A stretch of DNA of 64,000 nt from an uncultured Chloroflexia bacterium (GTDB lineage: Bacteria > Chloroflexota > Limnocylindria > Limnocylindrales > CSP1-4), in contig CAVSKR010000002.1 in assembly GCA_963728635.1 (NCBI GenBank), positions 136,140 through 200,139 of the forward strand, given 5' to 3'. The notes under the pieces are model-generated. The model did not search any database. It was not told the origin of the DNA and was given only the letters and a program-made list of their open reading frames with translations. Numbering within the stretch: the first letter of the stretch is position 1; every line of letters starts with the position of its first letter. This document shows, in pieces, positions 35,309-56,472 of the stretch. Made by a program: the position numbers and the translations under genes.

Positions 35309-36220
35309 TCAGATGGCCTCGATGCGGCGTGGCGCGAGCCGCGGACCGTAGCGCGGCGCGCGCATCCCGCTGAGCTCCAGCAGACGGACCACGAGCGCGC
35401 GCCGACCCCGGTACGGCTCGAGCAGCTCGAGCATCCGCGCATCGGTCGCACGCGGCTCGCCGGCCAGGCTGAACGCCACGAGATGTGGCAGGTGGAAGTC
35501 GCCGACGCTCACCGCGTCGACATCACCGAGCGCGCGGGCCCCGACCTCGGCCGCGGTCCACGGCCCGATACCCGGTACGGCCTGCAACCGCCGATAGCCG
35601 TCCGCGAACGGCATGTCGACGATCGCCTGGAACGTCGAGGCATGCGCCGCGATCGCCCGGATGAGATCGGCACGTCGACGCTCGACGCCGAGCGTGTGGT
35701 ACGACCAGTACGGCAGGCCGGCCAGCGTCGACGGCGCGGGCAGCACCCGCAGGCCGAGCTCCGGTGGACCCGGCGCGGGCTCACCGTACCGGCGGACCAG
35801 ACCGTGCCAGGCGCGATGGGCCTCGGTGCCGGTCACCTTCTGTTCGAGGATCGCCGCCACGAGCGACGGGAAGACCGCACCGGTGCGCGGGATCCGGACA
35901 CCGGGTCGCCGCCGCGCGAGCCCCACGATCAGGGGATCCGGCGCATCCGCGAGCGTCTCGGTGCCGGCGCTGAACAGCCGCGGGACCGCGTCGAGCGCCC
36001 GATCCGCACCCGGGCCCCATGCGTCGGCCGTCAAGCCCCGGCCGGCGACGGACAGGCCCAGCGTGGCGACACCGTCGGGAGTCCTCGTCGCGATCCAGGC
36101 GCGCCCCGAGGCGAGGCGGATCGTCCGGTCGCCGTGTCCCCGCACGAGCGGGCCAAGCGACGCGCCGAGGTCGAGAGGCCCGTCGAGAGCGAGCACCAGC
36201 CGGGCATTTGGTGGCGGCAC
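35309..36220 (-). CDS. alkA: DNA-3-methyladenine glycosylase II (AlkA, HhH-GPD)
   Basis: HhH-GPD motif LQAVPGIGPWTAAEV and the catalytic Asp region. Confidence 0.7.
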   Translation of the reverse strand: MPPPNARLVLALDGPLDLGASLGPLVRGHGDRTIRLASGRAWIATRTPDGVATLGLSVAGRGLTADAWGPGADRALDAVPRLFSAGTETLADAPDPLIVGLARRRPGVRIPRTGAVFPSLVAAILEQKVTGTEAHRAWHGLVRRYGEPAPGPPELGLRVLPAPSTLAGLPYWSYHTLGVERRRADLIRAIAAHASTFQAIVDMPFADGYRRLQAVPGIGPWTAAEVGARALGDVDAVSVGDFHLPHLVAFSLAGEPRATDARMLELLEPYRGRRALVVRLLELSGMRAPRYGPRLAPRRIEAI

Positions 36221-41946: not shown

Positions 41947-42636
41947 TCAGTCGCCGCCGCGCCCGAGCGACCGGGACGGGATCGCGAACGCCTGGAACAG
42001 GGCGATCGCCCAGAACGCCAACGTCAGCGGATCCGACTGGAGCGAGTCCATCACCACGCTGACGATGAAGTCCGGTGGCTGGATCAGCTCGATCGTCACG
42101 CCTTCCGCCGCGAGCTCCTGGCCCACGAAATGAGCGACGATGAGGTATTCGCTGACGACGAGCGCAAGGAGCGTCAGGACGACGGAGATCGCGACGAGGA
42201 CGACCGAGCCCCGGCGGTTCGCGCCGAGGACCACCCCGTACCCGACGATGAAGCCCACGGCGATCGCCACGAGCCCGACCTGGTACTGGCTGACGGCAAC
42301 GACGCCATACCAGACGGCGGAGGCGAGGACAGCCGCCACAAGCCCGGCGAGCAGGCCGCCGAGGATGTCGCTCGTGCTCGCCGGCTGACGAGGGGTCGAG
42401 TCGGCTTCGACGGCCGCAGGCGCGCCGGCGAGGGCGCCGGCGTTGAGCGGCGCACTGAGTGCCGCCACCCCGACGCCGCCATCGGCCGCGGCCAGGGTCG
42501 GCGAGGGGCTCGACACCACGCTGAGCGGACGGCCGTCGGGGGCGGCGACGATCTCGCGCGCACCACCACAGCTGTAGCACGAGTTGGCCGAGCCGCGGTT
42601 GATCGATTTGCAGTTCCCGCAGACCCAATCGTTCAC
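41947..42636 (-). CDS. Zinc-ribbon domain membrane protein
   Basis: GTG at 42636 after AAAGGGG. N-terminal CGNC...CYSCGG motif followed by four TM helices. Confidence 0.5.
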   Translation of the reverse strand: MNDWVCGNCKSINRGSANSCYSCGGAREIVAAPDGRPLSVVSSPSPTLAAADGGVGVAALSAPLNAGALAGAPAAVEADSTPRQPASTSDILGGLLAGLVAAVLASAVWYGVVAVSQYQVGLVAIAVGFIVGYGVVLGANRRGSVVLVAISVVLTLLALVVSEYLIVAHFVGQELAAEGVTIELIQPPDFIVSVVMDSLQSDPLTLAFWAIALFQAFAIPSRSLGRGGD

Positions 42637-42760
42637 GAGCGAACCCCTTTGGTTGGACCGGTCTTGGACCGGTCCTGGACCGGGCGGGCCGAGTATGGCG
42701 ACGGCCTTCGGCCCGGACGACCATCCGACGGTCATGGGGTCCACCAGTACACTCGCCGCG

Positions 42761-43633
42761 ATGACCCACCACGTCCAGCGTGAGGCTCCGCCGACGCGTC
42801 ACATCTCGACGCGCTCGATCGTGGCCGTGCGCGGGTCGACGCTCGAGATCCGTGGCGACCGGGTCGTGGGGGAGGCGCCCCTTGAGATTCGTGCCGCAGG
42901 CCCCGACCAGGACCCAGTTGCGGTCGCCGTCACGATGCGCACGCCGGGCTGCGAAGCCGAGCTTGCCGTCGGCTTCCTGCGCACGGAGGGACTGATCGAG
43001 GGTCCCGAGGTGGTCGGCACCGAGAGCGGCGACCCCGTCACGCTCAACCAGCCGGACGACACGATCGTCGTCCGTCTGTCGACTCCCTTCGACGACTCCG
43101 CGGTCGCGGAGCGGCATTTCGTCGCGACCGCCTCGTGCGGGATCTGCGGGAAGGCGTCGATCGACGAGGTCGCGCTGCGCTGCGAGGTCCTGCCCGAGGG
43201 CCCGGTCGTGCCGCGATCCGTGGTGGTCGCCCTGCCCGACCTCCTGCGAGCGGCCCAGAAGGCGTTCGACGAGACGGGCGGGCTGCACGCCGCGGCGCTG
43301 TTCTCCCCACGCGGCGAGTTGATCGTGATCCGCGAGGACGTCGGTCGACACAACGCTCTCGACAAGCTCGTCGGATCGCAGGTCCTCGCCGGAGAGCTGC
43401 CGCTGCACGACAGGATCCTGATGGTCTCGGGTCGGGTCAGCTTCGAGATCGTCCAGAAGGCCGCGGTCGCGGGGGTGCCGATCGTGGCAGCGGTTTCGGC
43501 ACCCTCGGATCTGGCGGTCGAGACCGCGGAGCGGCTCGGTGTGACCCTGGTCGGGTTCCTGCGCGGTGACAGGTTCAACGTCTACAGCCACGACCGCCGG
43601 ATCGATCTGCGCGACCTGACCGGCTGGGGCTGA
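42761..43633 (+). CDS. fdhD: Formate dehydrogenase accessory sulfurtransferase FdhD
   Basis: ATG at 42761. Catalytic motif SCGICGK and GRHNALDKL. Confidence 0.8.
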   Translation: MTHHVQREAPPTRHISTRSIVAVRGSTLEIRGDRVVGEAPLEIRAAGPDQDPVAVAVTMRTPGCEAELAVGFLRTEGLIEGPEVVGTESGDPVTLNQPDDTIVVRLSTPFDDSAVAERHFVATASCGICGKASIDEVALRCEVLPEGPVVPRSVVVALPDLLRAAQKAFDETGGLHAAALFSPRGELIVIREDVGRHNALDKLVGSQVLAGELPLHDRILMVSGRVSFEIVQKAAVAGVPIVAAVSAPSDLAVETAERLGVTLVGFLRGDRFNVYSHDRRIDLRDLTGWG

Positions 43634-43664
43634 CCGGCACCGATCCCCGTGCCGCTCCTTGACG

Positions 43665-44117
43665 TCACGCGTCCGTTTGACCTATCAGGTCAACGGCCCT
43701 CGCGAACCAGCTCGTCGCTTCGTCGATCGAGATCCGGATCATCGGCCGGTGCTCGAGGTCGTGATCGGCGTACTGCGGATACTTCGCGCGCAGCGCGACG
43801 ACAACGGCGTCCGCGGATCCGACCAGCGCCGCGCGTCCGTCGATCCGCAGCCACGCCAGCTCGGACCAGTCCTCGGACCAGCGGTCGACCAGCACGGTCA
43901 CGTCGGGTCGTGCCTCGATATCACGGACGCGGGCGAGCCCGCGAGGATCCGAAATCGACTTGGGTTTCTGGTCGATCGGCGACCACAGAACGCCATCCAT
44001 CATGACGAAACAGATCGGTACGAGGCGGGGTCGGCCGTCCTGGGCCACGGTCGCCAGCGTCCCCGTTCGCGCCGACTCCAGCAAGGCGCGCTCAACCGGC
44101 GTCAGGACGGAACTCAT
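43665..44117 (-). CDS. Pyridoxamine 5'-phosphate oxidase family / F420-dependent PPOX-class protein
   Basis: 150-aa split-barrel fold protein. Confidence 0.6.
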   Translation of the reverse strand: MSSVLTPVERALLESARTGTLATVAQDGRPRLVPICFVMMDGVLWSPIDQKPKSISDPRGLARVRDIEARPDVTVLVDRWSEDWSELAWLRIDGRAALVGSADAVVVALRAKYPQYADHDLEHRPMIRISIDEATSWFARAVDLIGQTDA

Positions 44118-44258
44118 CCGTTGCTCGTCGCGGCGACCTCGCGTTTGAGCTGCCGCTCCTCGTCGGGAAATGGCAGCAGGCAGGGATCAGGAAGCCAGGG
44201 CACACGGTACGCGGCGACGAGCGCGCCGAACCTGATCACCAGACCTGCGAACAGGAGC

Positions 44259-45389
44259 CTATTCGCCCACGTTCGCGACATCGACGCCCTCTTGTCGGGG
44301 CCGCTCGTTCACGAATTCGAAGCCGAACCGGCCCTTGATGCACAGGTGGCCGTCCGTTATCGATGAGTCGAGCGGCGAGGTGACCTTGAGGATGCGTTCG
44401 TCCTGGACGTGCAGGTCGACCGCGCAGCCGACGCCGCAATACGGGCAGATCGTCGATGTCACTGTCTGGGCGGACTCGTCCCATGTTCCGGCTTCGCGCA
44501 TGTCGTACTCGGGTTTGGCCATCAGGGCGCCGGTCGGGCATACCCCGATGCAGTTGCCGCAGTACACGCAGGCCGACTCCGGGAGCGGAACAGCCTGCTC
44601 GGTCGAGATCCGCGCGTCGAACCCGCGACCCGCGACCGCGATCGCGAATGTGTTCTGGGCATCCTCGCCGCACGCCTCGACGCACTTGTAGCAGAGGATG
44701 CACTTGGCGTAGTCGCGCACATAGAGGTCGTTGTCGATCTTCGTCGGCTGGGCCACGGTCGCCGCGTACGCCGCCTCGTCGGCTGTCGGGGCGTGGTGGT
44801 GCCCCGGCTCGTGGGCGTCGCGCTCGCCGGCTGCTGCCGCCACCGCCGGCGCGCCGAACCGCCCCGGATCCGCCCCATACCGATCCATGTACGCGTGGAT
44901 CGTGCCGTCGGGTGCGGCCGGACCGGCGAGCGACACGTCGACCGAGGAGCCCAGGAACTCCAGGACGACCTTGCGCGATGTGCGCACGCGCTCCGAGTCG
45001 GTCTGGACCTCCATCCCCGGCTCGACCGGTCGCGAGCACGCGGGGGCGAGCACCCGGGATCCCGTGACCTCGACCACGCACACGCGACAGACGTTGACCG
45101 GGGTGAGGTTGTCGGCGTAGCACAGCGTGGGTGTGTCGATCCCGAGGACCCGGCACGCGCCGAGGATCGTCGTCCCGGCAGGGACCGTGACGGATCGCCC
45201 ATCGACCGTCAGCTCGACGGGCGGTGGCGCCGCGACCGGCGGCGGTGCGGGCGGCCTCGAGGGTCGGGCCGGCGGACGCAGGATGATCTCGGTCAGCGGT
45301 TGTGCCGCCGGCGCCTGCCCGGCATGCGGCGAGTCGGGATCCGGCGCCGGGTCGCGGCTCATCGACAGCCCGGTCGTGTCCTCGCTCAC
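44259..45389 (-). CDS. fdsA: Fe-S subunit corresponding to the N-terminal third of formate dehydrogenase alpha: 2Fe-2S ferredoxin domain, 4Fe-4S domains, and the CPYCGVGC...LCIKG cluster motif
   Basis: NuoG-like N-terminus. It ends just after the Mo-domain FS0 Cys motif. Its ATG overlaps the fdsGB stop (ATGA). Confidence 0.7.
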   Translation of the reverse strand: MSEDTTGLSMSRDPAPDPDSPHAGQAPAAQPLTEIILRPPARPSRPPAPPPVAAPPPVELTVDGRSVTVPAGTTILGACRVLGIDTPTLCYADNLTPVNVCRVCVVEVTGSRVLAPACSRPVEPGMEVQTDSERVRTSRKVVLEFLGSSVDVSLAGPAAPDGTIHAYMDRYGADPGRFGAPAVAAAAGERDAHEPGHHHAPTADEAAYAATVAQPTKIDNDLYVRDYAKCILCYKCVEACGEDAQNTFAIAVAGRGFDARISTEQAVPLPESACVYCGNCIGVCPTGALMAKPEYDMREAGTWDESAQTVTSTICPYCGVGCAVDLHVQDERILKVTSPLDSSITDGHLCIKGRFGFEFVNERPRQEGVDVANVGE

Positions 45390-47233
45390 AGCGCCACCAG
45401 ATCCGGCTGGCGCAAAGCCGATTCGATCGCCGACGATGCGGTCTGCCCGAGCCCGCAGATCGAGGCGTCGCGCATGGCCTGCCCGATCTCGCGCAGCAGT
45501 GTCAGCTCCTCGTCACGCGACCGGATGTGCGATCCGGCGGCGAGTCGAGCCAGCAGCTCTTCCTGGCGGACGCTCCCGACACGGCACGGCACGCACTGAC
45601 CGCACGACTCGTCACGGAAGAAGCGGGCGATGCGCCGCAGCGTGTCGACGAGGTCCACGGTCTCATCGAAGACCATGATCACGCCGGACCCGAGCGTCGC
45701 GCCGGCCGCGCGGGTCGCCTCGAACGTCAGGGGCATGTCGAGGGACCCCGGACCGACGAACACCCCGGCAGCACCGCCGAGCAGGATCGCCCGGATGCCT
45801 CGCCCGCCGGGCACACCACCCGCCAGCTCGATCAAGTCGCCGAGGGTGGCCCCGAACTCGACCTCGAAGACGCCCGGTCGGGCGACATGCCCGGACAGGC
45901 AGAACAGCCGCGGCCCGGTGGACCCGTCGGTCCCGATCCGCGCGTACGCCTCGCCCCCCATCTCGATGATGAGCGGCACGTTGACCAGCGTCTCGACGTT
46001 GTTCACGACGGTCGGCTTCCCGAAGAGGCCGACTTCGACCGGGAACGGCGGCTTGTTGCGGGGTTCCCCGCGCTTGCCCTCGATCGACTCGAAGAGCGCG
46101 GTCTCCTCGCCGCAGATGTAGGCACCGGCGCCGCGCCGGACCTCGATATCGAACGAGAAGCCGGAGCCCATGATGTCGGGCCCGAGCAGGTTCGCAGCCC
46201 GGGCCGCATCGATCGCGCCGCGGATCCCCGCCTCGGCCTCCGGGTACTCGCCGCGGATGTAGATGTAGCCATGGCCCGCATCGGTCGCGAGGGCCGCGAT
46301 CGCCATCGCCTCGACGACCGCGAACGGGTCGCCCTCGAGCAGGACCCGATCCTTGAACGTGCCCGGCTCGGACTCGTCGGCGTTGCAGACCAGGTAGTGC
46401 GGCTGTGCGCTCTGTGATGCGACCGCCGCCCACTTGCGACCCGTGGGGAAGGCGGCGCCGCCGCGGCCCATCAGCTTGGACGCCGTCACCTCCGCGATGA
46501 CCGCCGCGCCGCCCATCGCGATGGCTTTCGTGAGGGCCTCGTAGCCGCCGTGGGCGCGATAGTCCGCGAGCGAGGCAGGGTCGACCACGCCAACGCGTCG
46601 GAGCAGCCGCAGGGACGGATCCTTGGTCTGCGGCAGGGGTGGCAGCCGGCGTGTCACCGCGGCCCCGTCGAGACGCGCGACGACTCCGGCCGCGTCGATC
46701 GGCGCCGCGCTGCCCACGGTCGAGTGCTCACCGGCGGTCGTGACCATGGCCGCGGGGGCAAGGTCGCACAGCCCGAGGCACGGCGACCGCTGCCAGCCCA
46801 CCTGGCCATCTCGCACCGCCGTCCCCTCCGGACCGACGGATCGAGCCAGGTCCTCGCAGATCCCCTCGGCGCCCGCGAGCCGGCACGCGATGTCGTCGCA
46901 GACATGGGCCATGACCGGCGGTCGCGGCGTCGTCGCGTAGAGCGCGTAGAACGTGGCGACGCCATACGCCTCGGCCGGTGGGACGGCGAGGCGCCGCGAG
47001 ATGTAGTTCAGGGCGGGCTGGCTGATCCAGCCGATCCGGTCCTGGACCGCGTGGAGAGCCGGCAGGAGCTGTGACCGCCGGGCCCGGATCGCATGACCGC
47101 CACGGGCGGCGTGGCCGTCGACGCCTGGACGACGTGCGCCGCCGACCCAACCCGATTCGGGCGGCCCCAGCACGCTGTCGATCGCGGCCCGTTCGGCGGG
47201 GGAGGCCAGGGGCCCGATGACGTGCAGGTCCAT
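45386..47233 (-). CDS. fdsGB: NAD-dependent formate dehydrogenase diaphorase subunit, a NuoE-like plus NuoF-like fusion (FdsG-FdsB)
   Basis: N-terminal thioredoxin-like 2Fe-2S (CDDIACRLAG), then FMN/NADH site GRGGAAFPTG and 4Fe-4S CGQCVPCR. Confidence 0.85.
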   Translation of the reverse strand: MDLHVIGPLASPAERAAIDSVLGPPESGWVGGARRPGVDGHAARGGHAIRARRSQLLPALHAVQDRIGWISQPALNYISRRLAVPPAEAYGVATFYALYATTPRPPVMAHVCDDIACRLAGAEGICEDLARSVGPEGTAVRDGQVGWQRSPCLGLCDLAPAAMVTTAGEHSTVGSAAPIDAAGVVARLDGAAVTRRLPPLPQTKDPSLRLLRRVGVVDPASLADYRAHGGYEALTKAIAMGGAAVIAEVTASKLMGRGGAAFPTGRKWAAVASQSAQPHYLVCNADESEPGTFKDRVLLEGDPFAVVEAMAIAALATDAGHGYIYIRGEYPEAEAGIRGAIDAARAANLLGPDIMGSGFSFDIEVRRGAGAYICGEETALFESIEGKRGEPRNKPPFPVEVGLFGKPTVVNNVETLVNVPLIIEMGGEAYARIGTDGSTGPRLFCLSGHVARPGVFEVEFGATLGDLIELAGGVPGGRGIRAILLGGAAGVFVGPGSLDMPLTFEATRAAGATLGSGVIMVFDETVDLVDTLRRIARFFRDESCGQCVPCRVGSVRQEELLARLAAGSHIRSRDEELTLLREIGQAMRDASICGLGQTASSAIESALRQPDLVAL

Positions 47234-47262
47234 CGATTCGAGTGTAGCGGTCCGATCTTCCG

Positions 47263-48114
47263 TCAGACGCGGAGGACTCGGACGTCGAGAGGCTGGGTGC
47301 GACCGCGCAGCGTCAGATTTCGCGTCTCGAGCGATCGATCGAGATCGGCCGCCTCAGCGGAGGCCGCGCTCACGAGGATCTCGCCCGGTCCGGCGGCCGA
47401 AGCGAGACGAGCGGTGACGTTGACGTTGTCGCCCAGCGCCGTGAAGTCCGTCACGGTGTCGCCGACCGTGCCGACGTAGGCGATCCCGGTATGCACGCCG
47501 GCGCCGACCGGGATCCACGGACCATCGGGGCTTCCGTGACCGGTGGCCCTGAGCAATTCGCGCGCCGCCTCGATCGCGGCGCGCGCATGGTCCGAACCCG
47601 CCAGCGCGGGAAGGAACAGCGCGACCACCTCGTCACCCACGAACTTGTCGACCACCGCGTCGCGCGCCACCAGCACGCTGGTCGCCTCGTGATAGAAGCG
47701 ATCGAGCAGCCGCCGGAAGGCATTCGCGCCCATGGTCTCGGCGAGACCCGTTGAGCCGCGGACGTCGGCGAACAGCATGCTCAGTTCGATCTCCGCGCCA
47801 CCACGGCTCTTCTCGAGCTGCTTGAAGCACAAGCCGCAGATGCTCGGGTTCTTCACCCATGGACCGCGGTCCAGCAGTCGCATGATCGGCGCGCCAAATC
47901 CGCCGAACGGGGCGGCGCACAGCTTGCAGCGCGGTGAGCTCGGGATCATCCGGAAGAAGCCGCGCCCCGCGACGAAGCCGGGGTCGTTCCCGCTCAGGAG
48001 CGCCAGCCACTGCGGGTCCGAGACGAAGGTCGGTTCCGCTACGGGGTCGGCCGGCTCGTCCGGCGCCGGATCCTCGACGTCGGCGGGCTGCGCGGATCCG
48101 CGCTGATCCATCAC
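47263..48114 (-). CDS. Class III adenylate/guanylate cyclase with N-terminal zinc-ribbon
   Basis: CKLC...CGLC ribbon followed by the cyclase core (FADVRGST, FVGDEVVALF, GDTVT). Confidence 0.7.
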   Translation of the reverse strand: MMDQRGSAQPADVEDPAPDEPADPVAEPTFVSDPQWLALLSGNDPGFVAGRGFFRMIPSSPRCKLCAAPFGGFGAPIMRLLDRGPWVKNPSICGLCFKQLEKSRGGAEIELSMLFADVRGSTGLAETMGANAFRRLLDRFYHEATSVLVARDAVVDKFVGDEVVALFLPALAGSDHARAAIEAARELLRATGHGSPDGPWIPVGAGVHTGIAYVGTVGDTVTDFTALGDNVNVTARLASAAGPGEILVSAASAEAADLDRSLETRNLTLRGRTQPLDVRVLRV

Positions 48115-48953
48115 CGGGCCGTGCCTGCGACAGTGCCTGTCATTTCCTCGCCACCGGACGCCGTGGCGATGCAGGCGATCTCACGGTCGCCTCGCGCCCA
48201 GGTCTCCTCACTTGGATACACGTAGAACATCTCCAGGCTCGAGGAATCGAAGTCGATGCCAACGTACTCCCCGAAGAGTGGCAGGCATCGGTCGTTGGCT
48301 GTGGTGCTGATCGTCGACATGCCCGGGAAGGTGGCACCGCTGGCCGCGTCTGCAACGGTGTGAACGCCGACGACTTCGCCGCGGTGGGGGTCCGCACACG
48401 GGACGGTGCGGATCGCGTCCGAGTCAGTGGTTTCGCCAGTGAAGTTGCCGTCGACGCACTCACCGGTGGCATAGCTCGGGATCGGGTTCAGCGCGGTCGC
48501 GGCCAGATAGGCGAGGGCGAACCACGCGAGAGCGGCGAGCACGGTCACACCGACCATCGCCCCGATCCGGACCGGCGTTCTCAGGCTGCTCCGCGAGATC
48601 GCGATGTTGCCCGCGGCCGCTGCGCCACCGAACGCGCCGCCGAGCAGACCGCCGACCGCGACGAGCCCGACCGGGAGGAAGGCAAGCACGGTCTCCCAGA
48701 GTGGTCGAGGTGGGTCCAGCGCGAACTGGCTGCCGTCATCGGCGATCGCGACGAGCCCGTTCCGCGTGGACTTCAGCGTGAACGCACGAGGCGTGCCATC
48801 GGACGTGACGATCGAGTACGTGTCCTTGCGAGCGGGATCGCGAGATATCTCGCTGCCGTCGACCCTGACGTGTGGCTTCGAGAACGCTCCGCGCTCGATG
48901 ACGATGTCCGGGCCGTCCGTGCCGGGCAGTCGGATCGTGGTCGACCGTGCCAC
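48111..48953 (-). CDS. Membrane protein with Cys-containing extracytoplasmic domain (DUF4190/septum-formation-like)
   Basis: Two TM helices and a C-terminal domain with four Cys residues. The stop overlaps the cyclase start. Confidence 0.5.
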   Translation of the reverse strand: MARSTTIRLPGTDGPDIVIERGAFSKPHVRVDGSEISRDPARKDTYSIVTSDGTPRAFTLKSTRNGLVAIADDGSQFALDPPRPLWETVLAFLPVGLVAVGGLLGGAFGGAAAAGNIAISRSSLRTPVRIGAMVGVTVLAALAWFALAYLAATALNPIPSYATGECVDGNFTGETTDSDAIRTVPCADPHRGEVVGVHTVADAASGATFPGMSTISTTANDRCLPLFGEYVGIDFDSSSLEMFYVYPSEETWARGDREIACIATASGGEEMTGTVAGTAR

Positions 48954-48958
48954 TGACG

Positions 48959-50872
48959 TCAGGCCGGGACCGGGGATTCGAGCTTCTCGATCCGGATCGC
49001 CGTGGCCTTGAACTCCGCGGTGCCCGACTTCGGGTCGGTCGCATCGATCGTGAGCAGGTTCGTCGCCACGTCGTCCTGGAAGTGGAGCGTCATGAACGTG
49101 AGCCCCGGCCGCAGGGACGGGTCGATCCGGACCGGGACCTCGACGTGGCCGCGACGCGACACGACCCGCACGCGCTGCCCCTCGACGAGACCGTACGCGT
49201 CGGCGTCTTCCGGCGAGATGTCGAGCGACTCGCCGCGGCGGAGGGGGGACGTGTACCCGGCCGTCTGGACACCCGTGTTGTACGAGTCGAGCCGGCGTCC
49301 CGTCGTGAGGCGGATCGGGTATTCGTCGGTGAGCTTGTCGACCGGCGGGTCGTGGTCGACCGGGACGAACGGCACCCGATTGCCCGGCACCGGGTCTTCC
49401 CAGAGTCGACTGTGGAGGAACAGCTCACCGGGGTGGTTCTCGTCGTAGCACGGCCACTGGAGGCCGCCGAGCTCCTCGAGCCGTCGATAGGACATGCCGG
49501 CGTGCACGGGCGACAGCGCGCGGACCTCGTCCCACACACGCTCCGCGACCGCCTCGCCCCAGTCCGCGCCCATCCGGTTCGCCAGCTCGAAGATGATGGC
49601 GAGGTCGTCACGCGCCCCGTCGGGCGGAGCGACCGCGGCGCGGACGCGCTGGACGCGTCGTTCCGAGTTCGTGACGGTCCCCTCCGCCTCGGCCCACGCC
49701 GCAGATGCGGGCAGGACAACGTCCGCGATCTCCGCGGTCCGCGTCAGGAAGAGGTCCTGCACCACGAGCATGTCGAGCCCCTCGAGCAGCCCGATCGCGC
49801 GGTGCTGGTCGGCCTCGGACTGGACCGGGTTCTCACCGATGCAGTACACGGCGGTCAGGTCGCCCCGCTCCATCGCATCGAACATGCCGGACAGATGCCA
49901 GCCACGCTGCGGCGGGATCGCCACGCCCCAGGCTGCGTCGAACTTGGCGCGCAGCTCGTCGTTCTCGACGTGCTGGAAACCGGGCAGTCGATCGGGCAGC
50001 GCACCCATGTCGCCGCCGCCCTGGACGTTGTTCTGGCCACGGAGCGGGTTGACGCCGCTGCCGTACCGACCCACATGCCCGGTCAGCAGCACCAGGGAGA
50101 TCAGGGCAAGAACGTTGTCGACCGCGTTGTGGTGCTCCGTGATCCCGAGGGTCCAGCAGATCATCGCCCGCGGTGCGGTGGCCAGCGCGTGGGCCAATTC
50201 CCGGATCGCCTCGGCCGGGACGCCGGTCTCCTTCTCGGCGTACTCGAGCGTGTACGACTCGACCTTGGCCTTGTAGGCGTCGAAGTCGACCGTCGCCCGC
50301 TCGATGAACTCGCGGTTCTCGAGACCCGCGGCGATGATCTCGCGCGCGACCGCGTTGGCCAGGGCGATGTCGCTGCCGACGTCGAGGCCGAGCCAGCTAT
50401 CTGCCCACTCCGCGCTCGACGTCCGGCGCGGGTCGACGGCGTACAGTCGGGCGCCCTTGTGCACGGCCTTGAGGACGTGATGGAAGAAGATCGGATGCGT
50501 CTCGCGGGCGTTGCTGCCCCAGAGGACGATCAGGTCGGTGTCCTCGGCCTCACGGTATGAGCTTGTGCCGCCACCGGCACCGAACACGGTCGCCAGACCG
50601 GCGACACTCGGGGCGTGTCAGGTGCGGTTGCAGCTGTCGATGTTGTTGCTGCCCAGGACCGCCCGGCTGAACTTCTGGGCTGCGAAGTTGACCTCGTTGG
50701 TCGCCTTGCTGCAGCTGAAGGTGCCGAAGGTCGTCGGGCCGTGAGCCGCCTTCGCGGCCTGGAACCCGGCGACCACCTTGTCCAGCGCTTCGTCCCAGGT
50801 CGCGGGTCGAAGCTCGCCGCCCTTCGTGTCGCGGACGAGGGGCTGGGTCAGACGTACGTAGGGTCGCGCCAC
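48959..50872 (-). CDS. fdhA: Selenocysteine-containing formate dehydrogenase catalytic (molybdopterin) subunit; the in-frame TGA at 50618-50620 is read as Sec
   Basis: GTG at about 50872 after GGAGGG. Residues before the TGA (MARPYVRLTQPL...NIDSCNRT) and after it (HAPSVAGLATVFG...) form one continuous conserved FDH sequence. The ORF track splits it into 50618..51139 and 48959..50587. Confidence 0.75.
50585..50620 (-). other. UGA-Sec codon plus bacterial SECIS hairpin (GUCGCC-GGUCU-GGCGAC)
   Basis: The GGUCUG apical loop sits 19-24 nt 3' of the UGA, the same position as in the E. coli fdhF SECIS, and it encodes the conserved VAGL. Confidence 0.7.
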
Positions 50873-50967
50873 GCGGGGCCCTCCTGCGGAAGACGACCGT
50901 CCGAGTGTACCCCTTGACGACCGGCCCTTCGGACGCCACCCTCCGCATCGTTCATGCGAGGGGACAC

Positions 50968-51558
50968 ATGACGACCGACGCCGCCACAGCCGATCTGCAC
51001 GAACCGCCGCCGCTCTTCTGCTACCGCCATCCGGACCGCGAGACGTGGGTCCGCTGTGGTCGCTGCGACCAGCCGATCTGCACGCGCTGCACGATGCAGG
51101 GCCCGGTCGGGTTGCGCTGCAGGTCGTGCGGCAAGCCATCGCGCGACGCCCTCGCGTCGCTCAAGCCGAACCAGATCGCGATCGGCCTGGCTGTGGCCAC
51201 CGGGCTCGGCGCGGTCGTGGGCTACTTCGGGGCGCAGTTCGGGCTCTTCATGATCATCGTTGGCTTCTTCGCCGGCACCATCATCGCGGAGGCGCTCGAC
51301 CGGACGATCGGCATCAAGCGCGGGCCACGGATCCTCGCCATCGCGATCACCGGGATCGTGGTCGGCAGCGTGCTCGGCGCGTCGCTGTCGCTCGTCGGAT
51401 TGTGGCGGGAGATGCTGGAGTTCGCGGCGATGGCCGAGGCGGCCGGGGAGTCTGGCTATCCGGCCCCGTCGCTCGACGTGTACCTCCTCCAGTACGTGCC
51501 CTCCGGGCTGATCAGCATGGGCGCGACGATCGTCGGCGCGTACGTCCGACTGCGCTAG
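50968..51558 (+). CDS. Zinc-ribbon (B-box-like) membrane protein
   Basis: ATG at 50968. CxxC-x-CxxC-x-CxxC cluster followed by TM helices. Confidence 0.45.
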   Translation: MTTDAATADLHEPPPLFCYRHPDRETWVRCGRCDQPICTRCTMQGPVGLRCRSCGKPSRDALASLKPNQIAIGLAVATGLGAVVGYFGAQFGLFMIIVGFFAGTIIAEALDRTIGIKRGPRILAIAITGIVVGSVLGASLSLVGLWREMLEFAAMAEAAGESGYPAPSLDVYLLQYVPSGLISMGATIVGAYVRLR

Positions 51559-52604
51559 GCCAGCGCGACTCCCGAACCGACCTCGACGCCGCCGATCCGC
51601 CAGGCGTCGACCCCGGCCGCGTGAAGCTGGTCGAGGACGCCGCCGAGCCGGTCTTCTGCGAGGGCCGCCAGGAGCCCACCGCCCGTCTGCGGGTCATGGG
51701 CGAGGGTGACCAATTCGCTCGGGACCTCCTCCAGGACGTCGAGCTCTTCCGCGACGAAGCGCCGGTTGTGCGCGGCGCCACCCGTCTCGACGCCGGCCGT
51801 GACCAGCTCGACCGCCCCGGACAGCGCCGGCAGGGCCCCCGCCTCGAACACGAGCCGCGCGCCTGAGGCTCGCGCCATCTCGAGTCCATGCCCGAGCAGC
51901 CCAAACCCGGTGACGTCGGTCGCCGCGGTCACGCCGTTGGCCACGAGCACCTCGGACGCCGCCCGGTTGAGGGTGCGCATCCCCTCGATCGCGGCGGCCA
52001 TGTCGGCCTCCCGGGTCTGACCCTGGCGCGCACCGCTCACCAACAGCCCGGTACCGAGGGGCTTGGTCAGGATCAGAACGTCGCCGGGTCGCGCCCCGCC
52101 CTTGCGCAGAAGCCGGTCGGGGTGCGCCGCGCCGATGACGGCCAGCCCGTACTTCGGCTCCGGGTCGCGGATCGTGTGGCCGCCCGCCAGCGTGCCGCCA
52201 GCCTCGCGCACCTTGGCCGACGCGCCGCCGAACACTTCGGCGAGCACGTCGCGCGGCAGCTCCTCGGGGAATGCCGCGATCGACAGGGCGAAGAGGACGC
52301 GGCCACCCATCGCGAACACGTCGCTCATCGCGTTCGCGGCCGCGATTTCGCCGAACGTCCATGCGTCGTCGACCAGCGGCGGGAAGAAGTCCAGCGTGCC
52401 GATGATCGCGAGGTCGTCGCTGACCCGGTACGCGGCGGCGTCGTCCGGCGGGTTGAGACCGGCGATCAGCTCGTCCGGGGCTGCCTCGGCGCCCAGACCC
52501 GCCAGCGCATCGGTGAGCAGGTCCGCACCGAGCTTCGCCGCGCAGCCGCCGCAGTCGGTCAGCGTCGTGAGGCGCAACGCGGGGATGTCGGACAGGGTCG
52601 TCAC
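51555..52604 (-). CDS. selD: Selenide, water dikinase
   Basis: About 349 aa. Motif LTDCGGCAAK (Cys form) in the N-terminal glycine-rich loop, with AIR-synthase-related domains. Confidence 0.8.
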   Translation of the reverse strand: MTTLSDIPALRLTTLTDCGGCAAKLGADLLTDALAGLGAEAAPDELIAGLNPPDDAAAYRVSDDLAIIGTLDFFPPLVDDAWTFGEIAAANAMSDVFAMGGRVLFALSIAAFPEELPRDVLAEVFGGASAKVREAGGTLAGGHTIRDPEPKYGLAVIGAAHPDRLLRKGGARPGDVLILTKPLGTGLLVSGARQGQTREADMAAAIEGMRTLNRAASEVLVANGVTAATDVTGFGLLGHGLEMARASGARLVFEAGALPALSGAVELVTAGVETGGAAHNRRFVAEELDVLEEVPSELVTLAHDPQTGGGLLAALAEDRLGGVLDQLHAAGVDAWRIGGVEVGSGVALA

Positions 52605-52640
52605 GGGCCGATGATAGGCCGCTTCCCAGTACCATCGTGT

Positions 52641-52738
52641 CGGGAGCGGTCGGGCCCCGGTGGGTCCCCCGGTCTTCAAAACCGGTGACGCCGCGCTCGG
52701 CGTGGCGTGGTGGGTTCGACTCCCACGCGTTCCCGCCA
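52641..52738 (+). tRNA. selC: tRNA-Sec (anticodon TCA)
   Basis: Anticodon stem CCGGT/ACCGG with loop CTTCAAA. Long variable arm. T-arm GTGGG-TTCGACT-CCCAC. Extended acceptor stem and encoded CCA. Confidence 0.75.
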
Positions 52739-52748
52739 CGGAGGATCG

Positions 52749-54119
52749 ATGTCGTCGAAGCCGGTCGTCCACCCGCGTCCGCCCAGCGTCGACCATCTGT
52801 TGACGTCGATCCGACTGCGGGAGGGCTTCGAGCGCGAGCATGAGGTCGTTGCCGACGCCGCCCGCGCGGTGATCGAAGAGGAGCGGGCGCGCATCACGGC
52901 CGGGGAGGACCCGAGGCTGGTCGGCGCGCTCGTCGATGACGTGGTGGCACACCTGGACGCATCCATCTCAGCGGCCGCTGACGTCGTCATCAACGCGACC
53001 GGCGTGATCGTCCACACCAACCTGGGCCGCGCACCGTGGTCGTGGCTCGCCAACGCCGCAGTCGGCCAAACGACCGATTATCTGCTGCTCGAGATCGATC
53101 GGGCGACCGGCCGCCGGGGTCGACGATTTCGACAGGCCGAGGAACACCTTGTCGCCCTCACTGGCGCCGACGACGCCCTGGTGACGAACAACAACGCGGC
53201 GGCCCTCGTGCTGGCCGTCGGCTTGGCGGGTCGCGGGGGTGTCGTCGTGTCGCGCGGCGAGCTCGTCGAGATCGGCGGCGGCGTTCGCATCCCCGACATC
53301 ATCCGGCGTGCCGGAGCGAAGCTCATCGAGGTCGGCACGACCAATCGGACGCGTGCCGAGGACTTCGAGGCTCCCCTTGCCGAGGGTCGAGCGCGTGCGG
53401 TGCTCCGCGTCCACCCGTCGAACTTCACGATCGCCGGATTCACGGAATCGCCCGACCCCGGCCGAGTGGCCGAGCTGGCGCACCAGCATGGCGCTTTCGT
53501 CGTCGACGATCTCGGATCAGGCGCACTGCTTCCGACCGAGCGCTTCGGGCTTGCGCACGAACCGACGCCCAGCGAGCGCCTGGCGGCCGGATCCGACATC
53601 GTGACGTTCAGCGGCGACAAGCTCGTCGGGGGGCCGCAGGCCGGGCTGGTGGTCGGCCGCGGCGACCTCATCGCGAGGATGCGGCGCGATCCGCTCGCAC
53701 GCGCGATGCGCCCCGACAAGGCGACCCTGCTGGGCGTGGCGGCGACCCTAGGGCTGTACCGCGCCGGGCTCGCGACGACGCACATCCCGGTGTGGATGAT
53801 GATCGCGACGCCCCTCGAGGCACTCCGCGCCCGCGCCGAGCGGGTGGCCGGAAGGATCGGATCCGCGGCGTCGGTCACCGAGATGCAGTCGACGATCGGC
53901 GGCGGCAGCCTGCCCGGCGAGACGATCCCATCTGTCGGCGTGGCGGTTCGGGCTCGGTCTGCCGACGATCTCCTGGCACGGATCCGGCAATGCGGTCGCC
54001 ACGCCGTCATCGGTCGAATCGAGGCGGATCGTGTCCTGCTCGACCTGCGGACGGTCCATCCCGATCACGACCGCCGACTCGCGACCACGCTCAGGGTCGC
54101 GCTCGCTGCCGGACGATGA
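52749..54119 (+). CDS. selA: L-seryl-tRNA(Sec) selenium transferase
   Basis: ATG at 52749 after GGAGGA. PLP fold with Lys motif [13 protein letters not shown]. Confidence 0.85.
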
Positions 54120-55885
54120 CCATCGTCGTCGGCACTGCGGGCCACATCGACCACGGGAAGACCACGCTGCTGCGCGCGCTGACCGGCATCGACGCGGACC
54201 GGTTGCCGGAGGAGCGCCGGCGGGGGATGACGATCGATATCGGCTACGCCCATCTGGACGCCGATGACGGCACGACGATCGACTTCGTCGACGTGCCCGG
54301 ACACGACAAGCTGGTCGGCAACATGCTCGTCGGGGCAGGCGAGGTCCACGCCGCCATGCTTGTCGTGGCCGCAGACGACGGGCCGCGCGCCCAGACGCTC
54401 GAGCACCTCGCGCTGCTCGACGCGTTCGGGATAGCGCCTGCGCTCGCGGTCGTGACGAAGATCGACGCCGTTCCGGCTGACCGGACGGAGGAGGTACGGC
54501 GGCAGGTCGCCGCGCTCCTCGCGCCGACCTCCATGAGTGATGCGCCCGTCCTCGCCGCATCCAGCGCGACCGGCGAGGGCGTGGCTGCGGTTCGCGCGGC
54601 GCTCATCACGCTCGGCGGTCGCGTTCGTCTCGGGGCGGGTCCACCGACGCTCGCCATCGACCGGGTCTTCACGATGAAGGGCCGCGGCGTGGTCGTGACC
54701 GGCACGCTTCGCGGCGGGCCACTCGCCCGAGGCGACGCGCTCCGCACCGTCCCGGGCGAGCGCAACGTGCGGATCCGCGAGATCCAGGTCCATGGCGTCA
54801 CCGTGGAGCGAGTCGTCGAGGGTGGTCGGACCGCGCTGAACCTGGCCGGTGTGGCGGAAGCCGAGCTGCATCGCGGGATGGTGCTGACCGCCGACCCGAC
54901 GGTCACGGCGACGGACCGATTCCTCGCCGCGTTGCGGCCGGTGGTCGCCGACCGCACGCGGGGCCGCGCCCATGCCGGCACGGCAGCCGTCGATGCGACA
55001 GTCGGGCGGAGCGGCCGCGACGCCCTGATGCTGCCTGACGGGCGAGCCGCCGGGACCGTGCGTCTTGCCGCGCCGATCGCGCTCCGGCCGGGCGATCGCT
55101 TCGTTCTGAGGCGTGGCGGCGAGATCGAACCGGTGGGTGGTGTGGTCCTCGACACGACGCCACCGCGTGGGATCTCCCGGCGACGGCAGACGCCCAAACG
55201 AGTCGCGGCGCTTGGGGACCTGGTCGGCGCGCCGGATCCACGACTCGACCTCCACGGAGCCGCAGGCGGTGGGCTGGCTCCCGATGTGCACCTGCTCGCC
55301 GCGGACGCGGCGATCGCTGCCGTCGATCCTGAGGCCCCGCTCTCGATGGTTCGCAACGCGGTGGCCCGAGCACTTCGTCGCGCGGTCACGATCCGGCGCG
55401 ATGAGGCGGCCGCCGCCGCGGCTGCCGTCGTCGACCGGCTGATCCGCGAGGAGCGACTGGTTCGCGACGGCGAGATCGTTCGACGACCCGGTGTGCGTGC
55501 GGCGGTCCCCGACCCGGCACTCGTTGCCGCGATGGACAGGCTCGAGTCGGCAGTCGCTGGCGTCGCACCCCCGCCCCTGGCCGAGGCGGCGCGCGCCGTC
55601 GGCTGTCCGCCGGCCGGCATTCGAGAGCTCGAGCGAGCCGGACGCATCGTCGTCCTCGATGCCGACCTGGCCTACGCGGCGGGCACCTACGGCGACCTGA
55701 CCGATCGGGCCTTGACGATGGCCGCAAGGGCACCGCTCACGCCCGCCGCCTTCCGCGACGCCACCGGGACCAGCCGCAAGTACGTCATGGCCATCCTCGA
55801 GGATCTCGACCGCCGGGCGCTCCTGCGGCGGACGCCGGCGGGGCACGTACCGGGACCGAAGGCGCCGGCCGTCGCCGGGCGATGA
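54116..55885 (+). CDS. selB: Selenocysteine-specific translation elongation factor
   Basis: ATGA overlap with selA. GTPase motifs [16 protein letters not shown] and TKID, plus C-terminal winged-helix domains. Confidence 0.85.
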
Positions 55886-56472
55886 CCGAGCGCATCGCAG
55901 CGATCGTCCTGGCGGGCGGTCGCTCGACCCGCTTCGGGCGCGACAAGCTCGCCGAGCCGATCAACGGTCAGCGGATGCTCGATCGAGCGATCGCGGCCGT
56001 CGCGCAGGTTGCTGATGTTGTGATGGTCATCGCGCCGCCGGATTCGGTGCCGGCGATCACGTCGCAGGTACAGATGCTCCACGATGCCCGCGCGTTCGAA
56101 GGGCCCCTCGCCGGCCTCGCGACCGGCCTCGATGCGATGGACCCGACCATCGAACGCGTCATCGTGGTCGGTGGCGACATGCCGACGCTCGTGCCCGCCG
56201 TGCTGCGCCGGCTCATCGATGCGCTCGAGACGCACGAAGCGGCCGCGCTGGCCGACGCAGCCGGTCCGCGGCCGCTCCCCATCGCGCTCCGCCGGTCCGT
56301 TGCCGGCCCGGTCGTCGGCCGACTGCTGGCTGGAGGCGAGCGGCGGCTTCGCGCGCTGGTCGACGAACTGCAGACGTTCTTTATCCCGGCCGCGGACTGG
56401 CTGAGAGACGACCCGACGGGCGCGACCTTGGCCGACGTCGACACGCCGGCCGACTTGCCAGACAGGAGCTGA
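55882..56472 (+). CDS. mobA: Molybdenum cofactor guanylyltransferase
   Basis: ATGA overlap with selB. N-terminal LAGGRSTRFG. Confidence 0.75.
   Translation: MTERIAAIVLAGGRSTRFGRDKLAEPINGQRMLDRAIAAVAQVADVVMVIAPPDSVPAITSQVQMLHDARAFEGPLAGLATGLDAMDPTIERVIVVGGDMPTLVPAVLRRLIDALETHEAAALADAAGPRPLPIALRRSVAGPVVGRLLAGGERRLRALVDELQTFFIPAADWLRDDPTGATLADVDTPADLPDRS

Follow-up and report, generated by a model that had tools for sequence, protein, structure and literature searches.

The DNA considered here is a stretch of 64,000 nucleotides (the window) from contig CAVSKR010000002.1 of an uncultured Chloroflexia bacterium, and on its minus strand it carries a gene for the catalytic piece of a formate dehydrogenase (FDH) that is interrupted by an in-frame TGA at 50620..50618. 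Judging from comparative sequence analysis, we are highly confident that the corresponding UGA is decoded as selenocysteine (Sec). Very probably, this TGA is a genuine Sec codon that comes with its own RNA signal, and the gene would then encode a bacterial selenoprotein of the ordinary kind. The observations behind this reading are the position of the codon, selection at the RNA level on a hairpin that follows it, a nearby set of genes for Sec decoding, the domains found in the product, and a clean split of the alpha subunit into two proteins.

Mechanical open reading frame (ORF) calling closes the frame 50618..51139 (-) at this TGA, which is in frame with the downstream ORF, and the next same-frame ORF opens at GTG 50587..50585 (-), 33 nt past the T of the TGA. 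A preliminary description of the stretch had pointed to this stop and restart and had proposed a read-through as NIDSCNRT-U. We found both features where it had placed them, on the minus strand, and translation confirmed the peptide. Reading through gives ...NIDSCNRT-[TGA]-HAPSVAGLATVFGAGGG..., or over a longer span ...GSNNIDSCNRT-[TGA]-HAPSVAGLATVFGAGGGTSSY..., such that the motif at the Sec column becomes NIDSCNRT-U-HAPSVAGL. The full coding sequence begins with GTG and runs for 84 codons to the TGA and for 552 codons beyond it, and the 637-residue protein would be expected to contain the Sec peptide SCNRT-U-HAPSVAGLATVFGAGGGTSSYR. The GTG start is backed by hundreds of independent 84-residue ORFs in the protein database, and conservation of the protein among the 80 loci described below starts at ...Y-V-R-L-T-x-P-L-V-R, which lies 81-90 codons ahead of the TGA. 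An alternative start at ATG 51139 was rejected: the upstream frame is rich in Arg and Ser, lacks conservation among relatives, and overlaps the divergent gene 50968-51558 (+), and several relatives have in-frame stops just upstream of the conserved N terminus.

The TGA coincides with the column of the active-site Sec or Cys residue in solved FDHs. When phmmer was run against PDB chains, CNRT-[TGA]-HAPSVAGL aligned to CARL-C-HAPTVAGL of the FdhF subunit from the T. kivui hydrogen-dependent CO2 reductase (HDCR), in which the catalytic residue is Cys, and the TGA column matched the X (Sec) of the F420-dependent FDH (CARL-X-HSATVVGL). Likewise, the sole internal TGA of E. coli K-12 fdhF (RefSeq), codon 140 within CCARV-[TGA]-HGPSVAGL, aligns with the window TGA and corresponds to U140 of FdhH. 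Because these alignments place the TGA on the Sec/Cys column, as the preliminary description had maintained, the objection it had itself anticipated, a TGA lying off that column, does not arise. Class I FDHs are recognized by Sec or Cys followed by His, plus a conserved Arg in RGQ (PMC8808070). This signature is present as U85-H86 and the Arg of PLRGQNNVQG. Pfam recognizes the Molybdopterin (7e-69) and Molydop_binding (2e-26) domains in the 637-residue protein, and its best NCBIfam model is TIGR01591 (Fdh-alpha; 646.7 bits, model positions 53-672).

Directly 3' of the codon lies the hairpin GUCGCC-GGUCU-GGCGAC, as had been reported. It comprises 17 nt inside the coding sequence and begins 12 nt after the UGA; GTCGCC occupies 50605-50600 (-), GGTCT 50599-50595 (-), and GGCGAC 50594-50589 (-), and the stem pairs nt 16-21 with nt 27-32 when counted from the U of the UGA. 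The loop nucleotides G22, G23, and U24 are 19-21 nt after the codon, and the string GGUCUG (nt 22-27) is 19-24 nt after it. The preliminary description had equated this placement with that in E. coli fdhF, and RefSeq K-12 fdhF is indeed identical in both position and sequence. Bacterial Sec insertion sequence (SECIS) elements have a stem of 6-8 bp and a loop G about 20 nt after the UGA (PMC4605307), and the window hairpin satisfies this geometry with its 6-bp stem and a loop G(U) at about 20 nt. Perfect hairpins with a 6-bp stem and a 5-nt loop number 106 in the window, which corresponds to a chance rate of 8.3e-4 per position, or 6e-5 with GU in the loop.

The strongest evidence for the hairpin comes from orthologs. 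A scan of one genome per species gave 80 loci from relatives that are 69-93% identical. These relatives represent at least eight phyla or comparable lineages, namely Chloroflexota (Limnocylindria-type, the clade of the window), Acidobacteriota, Planctomycetota, Dormibacterota, Methylomirabilota/Rokubacteria, Eremiobacterota, Actinomycetota, and Verrucomicrobiota. TGA occupies the Sec column in 79 of 79 informative loci, as well as in the window. Codons +5 to +9 are nearly frozen (GTC in 80/80, GCC in 52/52, GGT in 77/80, CTG in 80/80, and GCG in 75/75), with a synonymous entropy of 0-0.27 bits compared to 1.3-2.0 bits in the flanking four- and six-fold degenerate codons of the same sequences. 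The frozen stretch covers exactly nt 16-30 and thus coincides with the hairpin, whereas on both sides of it the protein is conserved and synonymous change is free, with flanking four-fold sites near saturation. GGT dominates at the frozen Gly codon even though nearby Gly residues are commonly encoded by GGC, and 77 of the 80 sequences have the GGUCU loop.

From the ortholog alignment, RNAalifold predicted exactly the GUCGCC/GGCGAC helix without being prompted, and all 480 stem pairs across these sequences are standard. At pair 20:28, C-G occurs 52 times, U-G 23 times, U-A five times, and C-A never. The changes at this pair also alter the protein (Ala/Val and Ala/Thr): Val together with Thr gives U-A, and Ala together with Thr was never seen. 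We judge this comparative evidence, together with the losses in Cys forms described next, to be decisive for a hairpin that is present beyond chance.

Relatives that carry a Cys codon at the same column provide a control. They occur among actinomycetes (Streptomyces, Nonomuraea) and in metagenomic contigs, and they share CNRT-C-HAPSVAGL and the same short N terminus. In the DNA of seven relatives with TGC or TGT, which is a small sample, the same peptide is spelled by varied codons (GTC/GTG, GCC/GCG, GGG/GGC/GGT, and CTG/CTC). The stem is intact in one of the seven and the GGUCU loop in one, and both together are found in none. Because each of the seven has lost the stem, the loop, or both, the hairpin appears to be conserved only in company with the TGA codon, as expected for a SECIS.

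The window also encodes what is needed to use such a codon (Table 1). The Sec-decoding trait is complete, with selA, selB, selC, and selD all present 1-5 kb from the FDH gene, and selD, selA, and selB score above the NCBIfam equivalog cutoffs. These genes are part of a 14-kb island (42584-56472) that also holds fdhD, a gene for an iron-sulfur (Fe-S) piece, nuoEF, the catalytic gene, and a mobA-like gene. Among the first 32 loci, which are of the Chloroflexota type, 16 have the tRNA-Sec gene beside the operon, and adjacency of the sel cluster is limited to such relatives. TGA ends 8 of the 13 Pfam-validated genes in the window, the FDH gene among them. TGA is thus a normal terminator here, and the genetic code is standard. 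We also scanned the G+C content of third codon positions (GC3) on both sides of in-frame TGAs, and found no convincing selenoprotein TGA in the 64-kb window besides 50620 (-). Just one other TGA, at 35309-35311 (-), is flanked in both directions by open frames of high GC3. It continues as RYAGRRWRSPQM..., which is Arg-rich and not protein-like, and it is probably an ordinary stop. The selenoprotein assignment made in the preliminary description thus draws support from conservation of the TGA, selection on the hairpin, its loss in Cys forms, and the adjacent Sec machinery.

Table 1. Features of the window that bear on the FDH gene, its Sec codon, and Sec decoding
Feature	Coordinates	Strand	Basis or remarks
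Sec-containing catalytic (Mo/W-bisPGD) piece of FDH alpha subunit, full coding sequence	48959..50872	-	637 residues; GTG start; TGA terminator
Predicted Sec codon UGA, codon 85 of the coding sequence	50618..50620	-	In the Cys/Sec column when aligned with solved FDHs; matches codon 140 of E. coli fdhF; kept in orthologs
Predicted SECIS apical hairpin: 6-bp stem GUCGCC/GGCGAC, 5-nt loop GGUCU	50589..50605	-	nt 16-32 counted from U of UGA
Shine-Dalgarno-like AGGAGG	50880..50885	-	7 nt upstream of GTG start; read directly
NuoE-NuoF fusion (FdsG/FdsB-like FMN/NAD module)	45386..47233	-	615 residues; Pfam 2Fe-2S_thioredx + Complex1_51K + NADH_4Fe-4S; NCBIfam nuoF_fam / nuoE_fam
Fe-S piece, N-terminal third of FdsA-like alpha subunit	44259..45389	-	Pfam Fer2_4 (2Fe-2S), 4Fe-4S dicluster, Molybdop_Fe4S4
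FdhD-type sulfurtransferase (FDH maturation)	42584..43633	+	tblastn 61% identity, E = 2e-47; PF02634, 220 bits
selD, selenophosphate synthetase, Cys form	51555..52604	-	TIGR00476, 344.7 bits vs cutoff 125; GTG start
tRNA-Sec (selC), anticodon UCA	52642..52738	+	ARAGORN; Rfam RF01852, 71.7 bits vs gathering 47
selA, Sec synthase	52749..54119	+	PF03841; TIGR00474, 441 bits vs cutoff 268
selB, Sec-specific elongation factor with C-terminal winged-helix SECIS-binding domain	54116..55885	+	GTP_EFTU + SelB-wing_3; TIGR00475, 292.7 bits vs cutoff 242
MobA-like nucleotidyltransferase (bis-PGD cofactor synthesis)	55882..56472	+	PF12804
Mo/W-bisPGD, molybdenum or tungsten bound by bis-pyranopterin guanine dinucleotide; FMN, flavin mononucleotide; NAD, nicotinamide adenine dinucleotide.

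Several results weigh against the selenoprotein reading. In addition to the small size of the Cys-form sample, covariation in the stem is thin, as four of the six pairs are invariant and 6 of 500 trials of a shuffle control gave a value as high as the observed one. Therefore, the case for function at the RNA level rests mostly on the synonymous freeze and on the Cys-form control. Folding of 51 nt of the single sequence gave a minimum free energy (MFE) with z = -1.2, which is not significant, and a fold different from the hairpin. On the single sequence alone, the hairpin is no more than chance by folding energy, and we left the single-sequence MFE out of the evidence because it is uninformative in a sequence of 70% GC. 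The 637-residue protein also narrowly misses the trusted cutoff of TIGR01591 (666.25 bits) because its N terminus, relative to the model, is missing.

The remaining points of this kind concern the likeness of the hairpin to curated elements. An Rfam scan matched no SECIS family at its gathering score, and the best hit of a permissive scan, SECIS_3 at 50570..50623 (-), reached 13.6 bits compared to a gathering score of 63 (E = 2.5), which is not significant. In this covariance-model scan, a check that the preliminary description had recommended, the weak SECIS_3 alignment falls exactly on the hairpin at the UGA, and by score the hairpin is not a member. Other matches of the permissive scan were to microRNA families and are spurious. 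The bacterial SECIS families of Rfam (SECIS_2 to SECIS_5) are lineage-specific. Furthermore, the bulged U of the E. coli fdhF stem is absent from the perfect 6-bp stem of the window, and RNAalifold found no conserved lower helix including the UGA within positions -9 to +50. The bulged U matters for the SelB of E. coli in particular and is not known as a general feature of bacterial SECIS elements. The term "canonical," which the preliminary description had applied to this SECIS, is consequently apt for its geometry and loop sequence, but not with respect to a curated Rfam match, the bulged U, or a conserved lower helix.

Three other explanations were weighed. That the TGA is a genuine stop, and the locus is either a pseudogene or two genes (an 84-residue peptide and a 542-residue protein re-initiated at GTG 50587), is how gene callers everywhere treat it, and TGA is a normal terminator in this genome. 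The 84-residue product is even probably made in addition, given that only 30-40% of ribosomes recode UGA in E. coli (PMC4513850). We nevertheless regard a genuine stop as very improbable. The TGA is kept in orthologs across phyla with both flanks under purifying selection, whereas a pseudogene would decay. Moreover, re-initiation would cost the 542-residue product its metal ligand, His86, and 95 residues from the start of the Molybdopterin domain. Homologs with a Cys codon have no interruption at this column, and the Sec machinery adjoins the gene. The UGA could instead be read through without Sec, either by near-cognate insertion of Trp or Cys or under a reassigned code, with the hairpin serving as a stimulator or pause site. 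Hairpins 3' of stop codons can stimulate read-through, and one database relative (P0125) has Trp at the column (CNRTWHAP). However, the code is standard by the count of TGA terminators given above, the column is that of the Sec/Cys metal ligand, the sequence and position of the loop match those of the SelB-binding fdhF SECIS, and a dedicated tRNA-Sec, selA, selB, and selD lie beside the gene. This explanation deserves as little credence as a genuine stop.

Only slightly less improbable is the proposal that the hairpin has no RNA function and is kept only through the SVAGLA peptide or codon bias, with Sec inserted in response to some other signal. In its favor, VAGL is conserved throughout FDHs, including the Cys forms, and CTG and GCC are favored in a genome of 70% GC. 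Such coding constraints do not agree with the Cys-form relatives, in which varied codons spell the same peptide and the stems are broken, nor with the prevalence of GGT (77/80), which is not the preferred codon at neighboring Gly positions. Replacements in the stem are coordinated as well, as noted for Val with Thr and the absence of Ala with Thr, and the four-fold sites that flank the hairpin in these sequences are close to saturation.

The second subject of this study is the architecture of the enzyme. The preliminary description called the product the catalytic FDH subunit, which is right insofar as it is the catalytic piece, but relative to an FdsA-like alpha subunit it comprises just the C-terminal two-thirds, and the Fe4S4 domain is encoded elsewhere. 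Pfam detects no Molybdop_Fe4S4 domain (PF04879) in the 637-residue protein, whose alignments with solved FDHs begin no earlier than residue ~60 (FdhH type) or residue 308 (FdsA), and the absence of this domain from the catalytic piece is conserved in the 80 loci. The Fe-S piece aligns to residues 18-307 of R. capsulatus FdsA and the catalytic piece to residues 308-935; in TIGR01591, the two cover positions 1-53 and 53-672, respectively. The split point therefore corresponds to residue 307/308 of solved FdsA, at the border of the Fe4S4 and Mo domains.

The three genes lie on one strand in the order catalytic piece, nuoEF, and Fe-S piece in all 64 loci in which all three are visible, and these loci represent several phyla. 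In the window, nuoEF shares 4 nt at its stop with the start of the gene for the Fe-S piece. The gap after the catalytic gene has a median of 57 nt and measures 3-150 nt in most phyla other than the clade of the window, where extra genes have been inserted. In the window itself, region 47263-48953 (-) between the catalytic gene and nuoEF holds genes for a Septum_form-domain protein and an adenylate/guanylate cyclase, which are unrelated insertions. The order A_C, GB, A_N is a circular permutation of the canonical fdsG-fdsB-fdsA, and a tandem duplication with later loss of its ends could have yielded the permutation as well as the split.

When 1.8 billion representatives were searched exhaustively, members of the split clade were retrieved at 53-64% identity, whereas the nearest unsplit FDHs reached at most 47%; the split clade is separate from the unsplit enzymes. 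The preliminary description had remarked on CNRT in place of CARV or CARL before the Sec residue, and the search bears this out and extends it. CNRT (50621-50632 (-) in the window) is invariant in the split clade, in Sec and Cys forms alike, whereas the nearest unsplit FDHs carry CARL, CARV, or CARI. CNRT is a marker of the split clade, and it possibly has a structural role at the interface with the Fe4S4 domain supplied in trans. We found no published description of a split FdsA or FDH arrangement, which is not proof of absence since most subscription journals were outside the coverage of the search. It is conceivable, although rather unlikely as a whole, that these enzymes form an undescribed architectural class of metal-dependent FDH, widespread in uncultured soil phyla, in which an FdsA-like alpha subunit has been split by operon-level circular permutation, the proximal [4Fe-4S] cluster is provided in trans, CNRT is adapted to the resulting interface, and failure of Sec insertion exerts polarity on the partner subunits.

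If the UGA is decoded as Sec, the adjacent genes suggest how this would proceed. Selenium insertion itself, SelB binding, complex formation, the electron acceptor, and the choice between molybdenum and tungsten are inferences. SelD would supply selenophosphate, with which SelA would convert Ser-tRNA(Sec), transcribed from selC, to Sec-tRNA(Sec). SelB would bind the 17-nt hairpin through its C-terminal winged-helix domain and, competing with RF2, bring Sec-tRNA(Sec) to the ribosome. In the resulting 637-residue Mo/W-bisPGD polypeptide, Sec85 would ligate Mo or W next to His86 and the Arg of PLRGQNNVQG. This catalytic piece most likely assembles with the Fe-S piece and the NuoE-NuoF fusion into an NAD(P)-linked, FdsABG-like enzyme. 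The Fe4S4 domain of the Fe-S piece would then provide the proximal cluster, from which electrons would pass via NuoG-like clusters to the FMN/NAD module. Because UGA recoding in E. coli is only partial and the UGA lies only 84 codons into the first cistron, we speculate that selenium supply gates the whole FDH operon by polarity.

Comparison with known systems shows what is shared and what is not. As in E. coli fdhF, the Sec column is followed by His and, downstream, by S-V-A-G-L, and GGUCUG is found at nt 22-27 in both. The SelB-dependent mechanism also appears to be shared, given the adjacent selB with its SelB-wing_3 domain. In contrast to fdhF, the window has a perfect 6-bp stem with a 5-nt loop and neither a bulged U nor a conserved lower helix, and its motif is CNRT rather than CARV. 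E. coli FdhH also carries its own Fe4S4 domain (the alignment begins at chain residue 61), which the window protein does not. Compared to FdsABG (R. capsulatus FdsA, PDB 6tg9/6tga; C. necator), the window encodes the same NuoG-like 2Fe-2S and 4Fe-4S, Fe4S4, and Mo-bisPGD domains, NuoE/NuoF-like partners, the class I U/C-H ... RGQ active site (PMC8808070), and a nearby FdhD/FdsC-type maturation gene. However, FdsA is one chain of ~958 residues with Cys, whereas the window has proteins of 376 and 637 residues, the latter carrying Sec. The equivalents of FdsG and FdsB are fused in the window, and the gene order is catalytic piece, GB fusion, and Fe-S piece rather than G-B-A. The SECIS of Moorella thermoacetica fdhA, which has reportedly been crystallized with the winged-helix domains of SelB (Yoshizawa et al. 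2005, cited in PMC4605307), may offer a lead for comparison. If it indeed has a perfect G+C-rich stem closed by C-G and a GGUCU-type loop whose G and U touch SelB, it would resemble the window hairpin more closely than the E. coli element does.

FDH alpha is the most common bacterial selenoprotein, and one more example is therefore expected. Both the selenoprotein and its SECIS are of an already well-known kind, and novelty here would lie in the split and permuted architecture, if it is indeed undescribed. Additional interest attaches to the annotation of these genes, which ORF calling had been predicted to truncate. The database entries bear this out, as the best 120 matches to the read-through protein are all post-TGA fragments of 540-551 residues named "formate dehydrogenase major subunit" or "YjgC," and the pre-TGA part exists as hundreds of 84-residue ORFs. 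For the window gene, the public record consists of pieces of 84 and 542 residues. This misannotation is systematic, since every close database relative (from Chloroflexota, Acidobacteriota, Planctomycetota, Dormibacterota, and others) is stored as fragments of 84 and ~542 residues. Therefore, reconstructions of abundant soil lineages may under-call both formate oxidation and selenium dependence. The nearly invariant and thus searchable SECIS string TGA-N12-GTCGYCGGTCTGRCGRC allows such genes to be found and repaired automatically. A conserved split and permuted alpha subunit with its CNRT marker, if undescribed, would represent a natural experiment on whether a Mo-bisPGD enzyme can receive its FS0 domain in trans.

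ORF callers face a further trap nearby. The longest mechanical ORFs for selD (51555-52952 (-)) and selA (52707-54119 (+)) both cross the tRNA-Sec gene, and the real starts are GTG 52604 and ATG 52749, respectively. The true start of fdhD is probably also internal to its ORF.

Some observations concern the history of the operon. The catalytic proteins share 70-75% identity, and the SECIS elements are almost identical in base sequence, across metagenome-assembled genomes (MAGs) of Chloroflexota, Acidobacteriota, Planctomycetota, Dormibacterota, Gaiellales, and Verrucomicrobiia (loci L033-L080 compared to L001-L032). Because protein identity is high and the SECIS is nearly identical between phyla, horizontal spread of the FDH operon is suggested. 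Some MAG taxon labels are doubtful, such as "Bifidobacteriaceae" for L054. Among the Cys forms, Nonomuraea polychroma (L084:3001-3738) has what looks like a deletion remnant of the entire operon, in which the first ~150 residues of the catalytic piece run directly into the C-terminal portion of FdhD. In other operons of the Cys form (L082, L085, and L086), the genes are fragmented into many small ORFs, through either frameshifts that reflect decay or assembly errors. P0125, a split-clade database protein from a source without a contig, reads CNRT-W-HAPSVAGL, and its Trp at the Sec/Cys column may reflect a TGA-to-TGG mutation, translation with another code, or an artifact.

The divergent gene 50968-51558 (+) begins 95 nt from the FDH start. 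Its product has no Pfam or NCBIfam match, and it combines a Cys-rich N terminus (four CxxC motifs, zinc-ribbon/B-box-like) with predicted membrane helices. A homolog with 39% identity to this product is encoded upstream of the FDH gene at locus L020.

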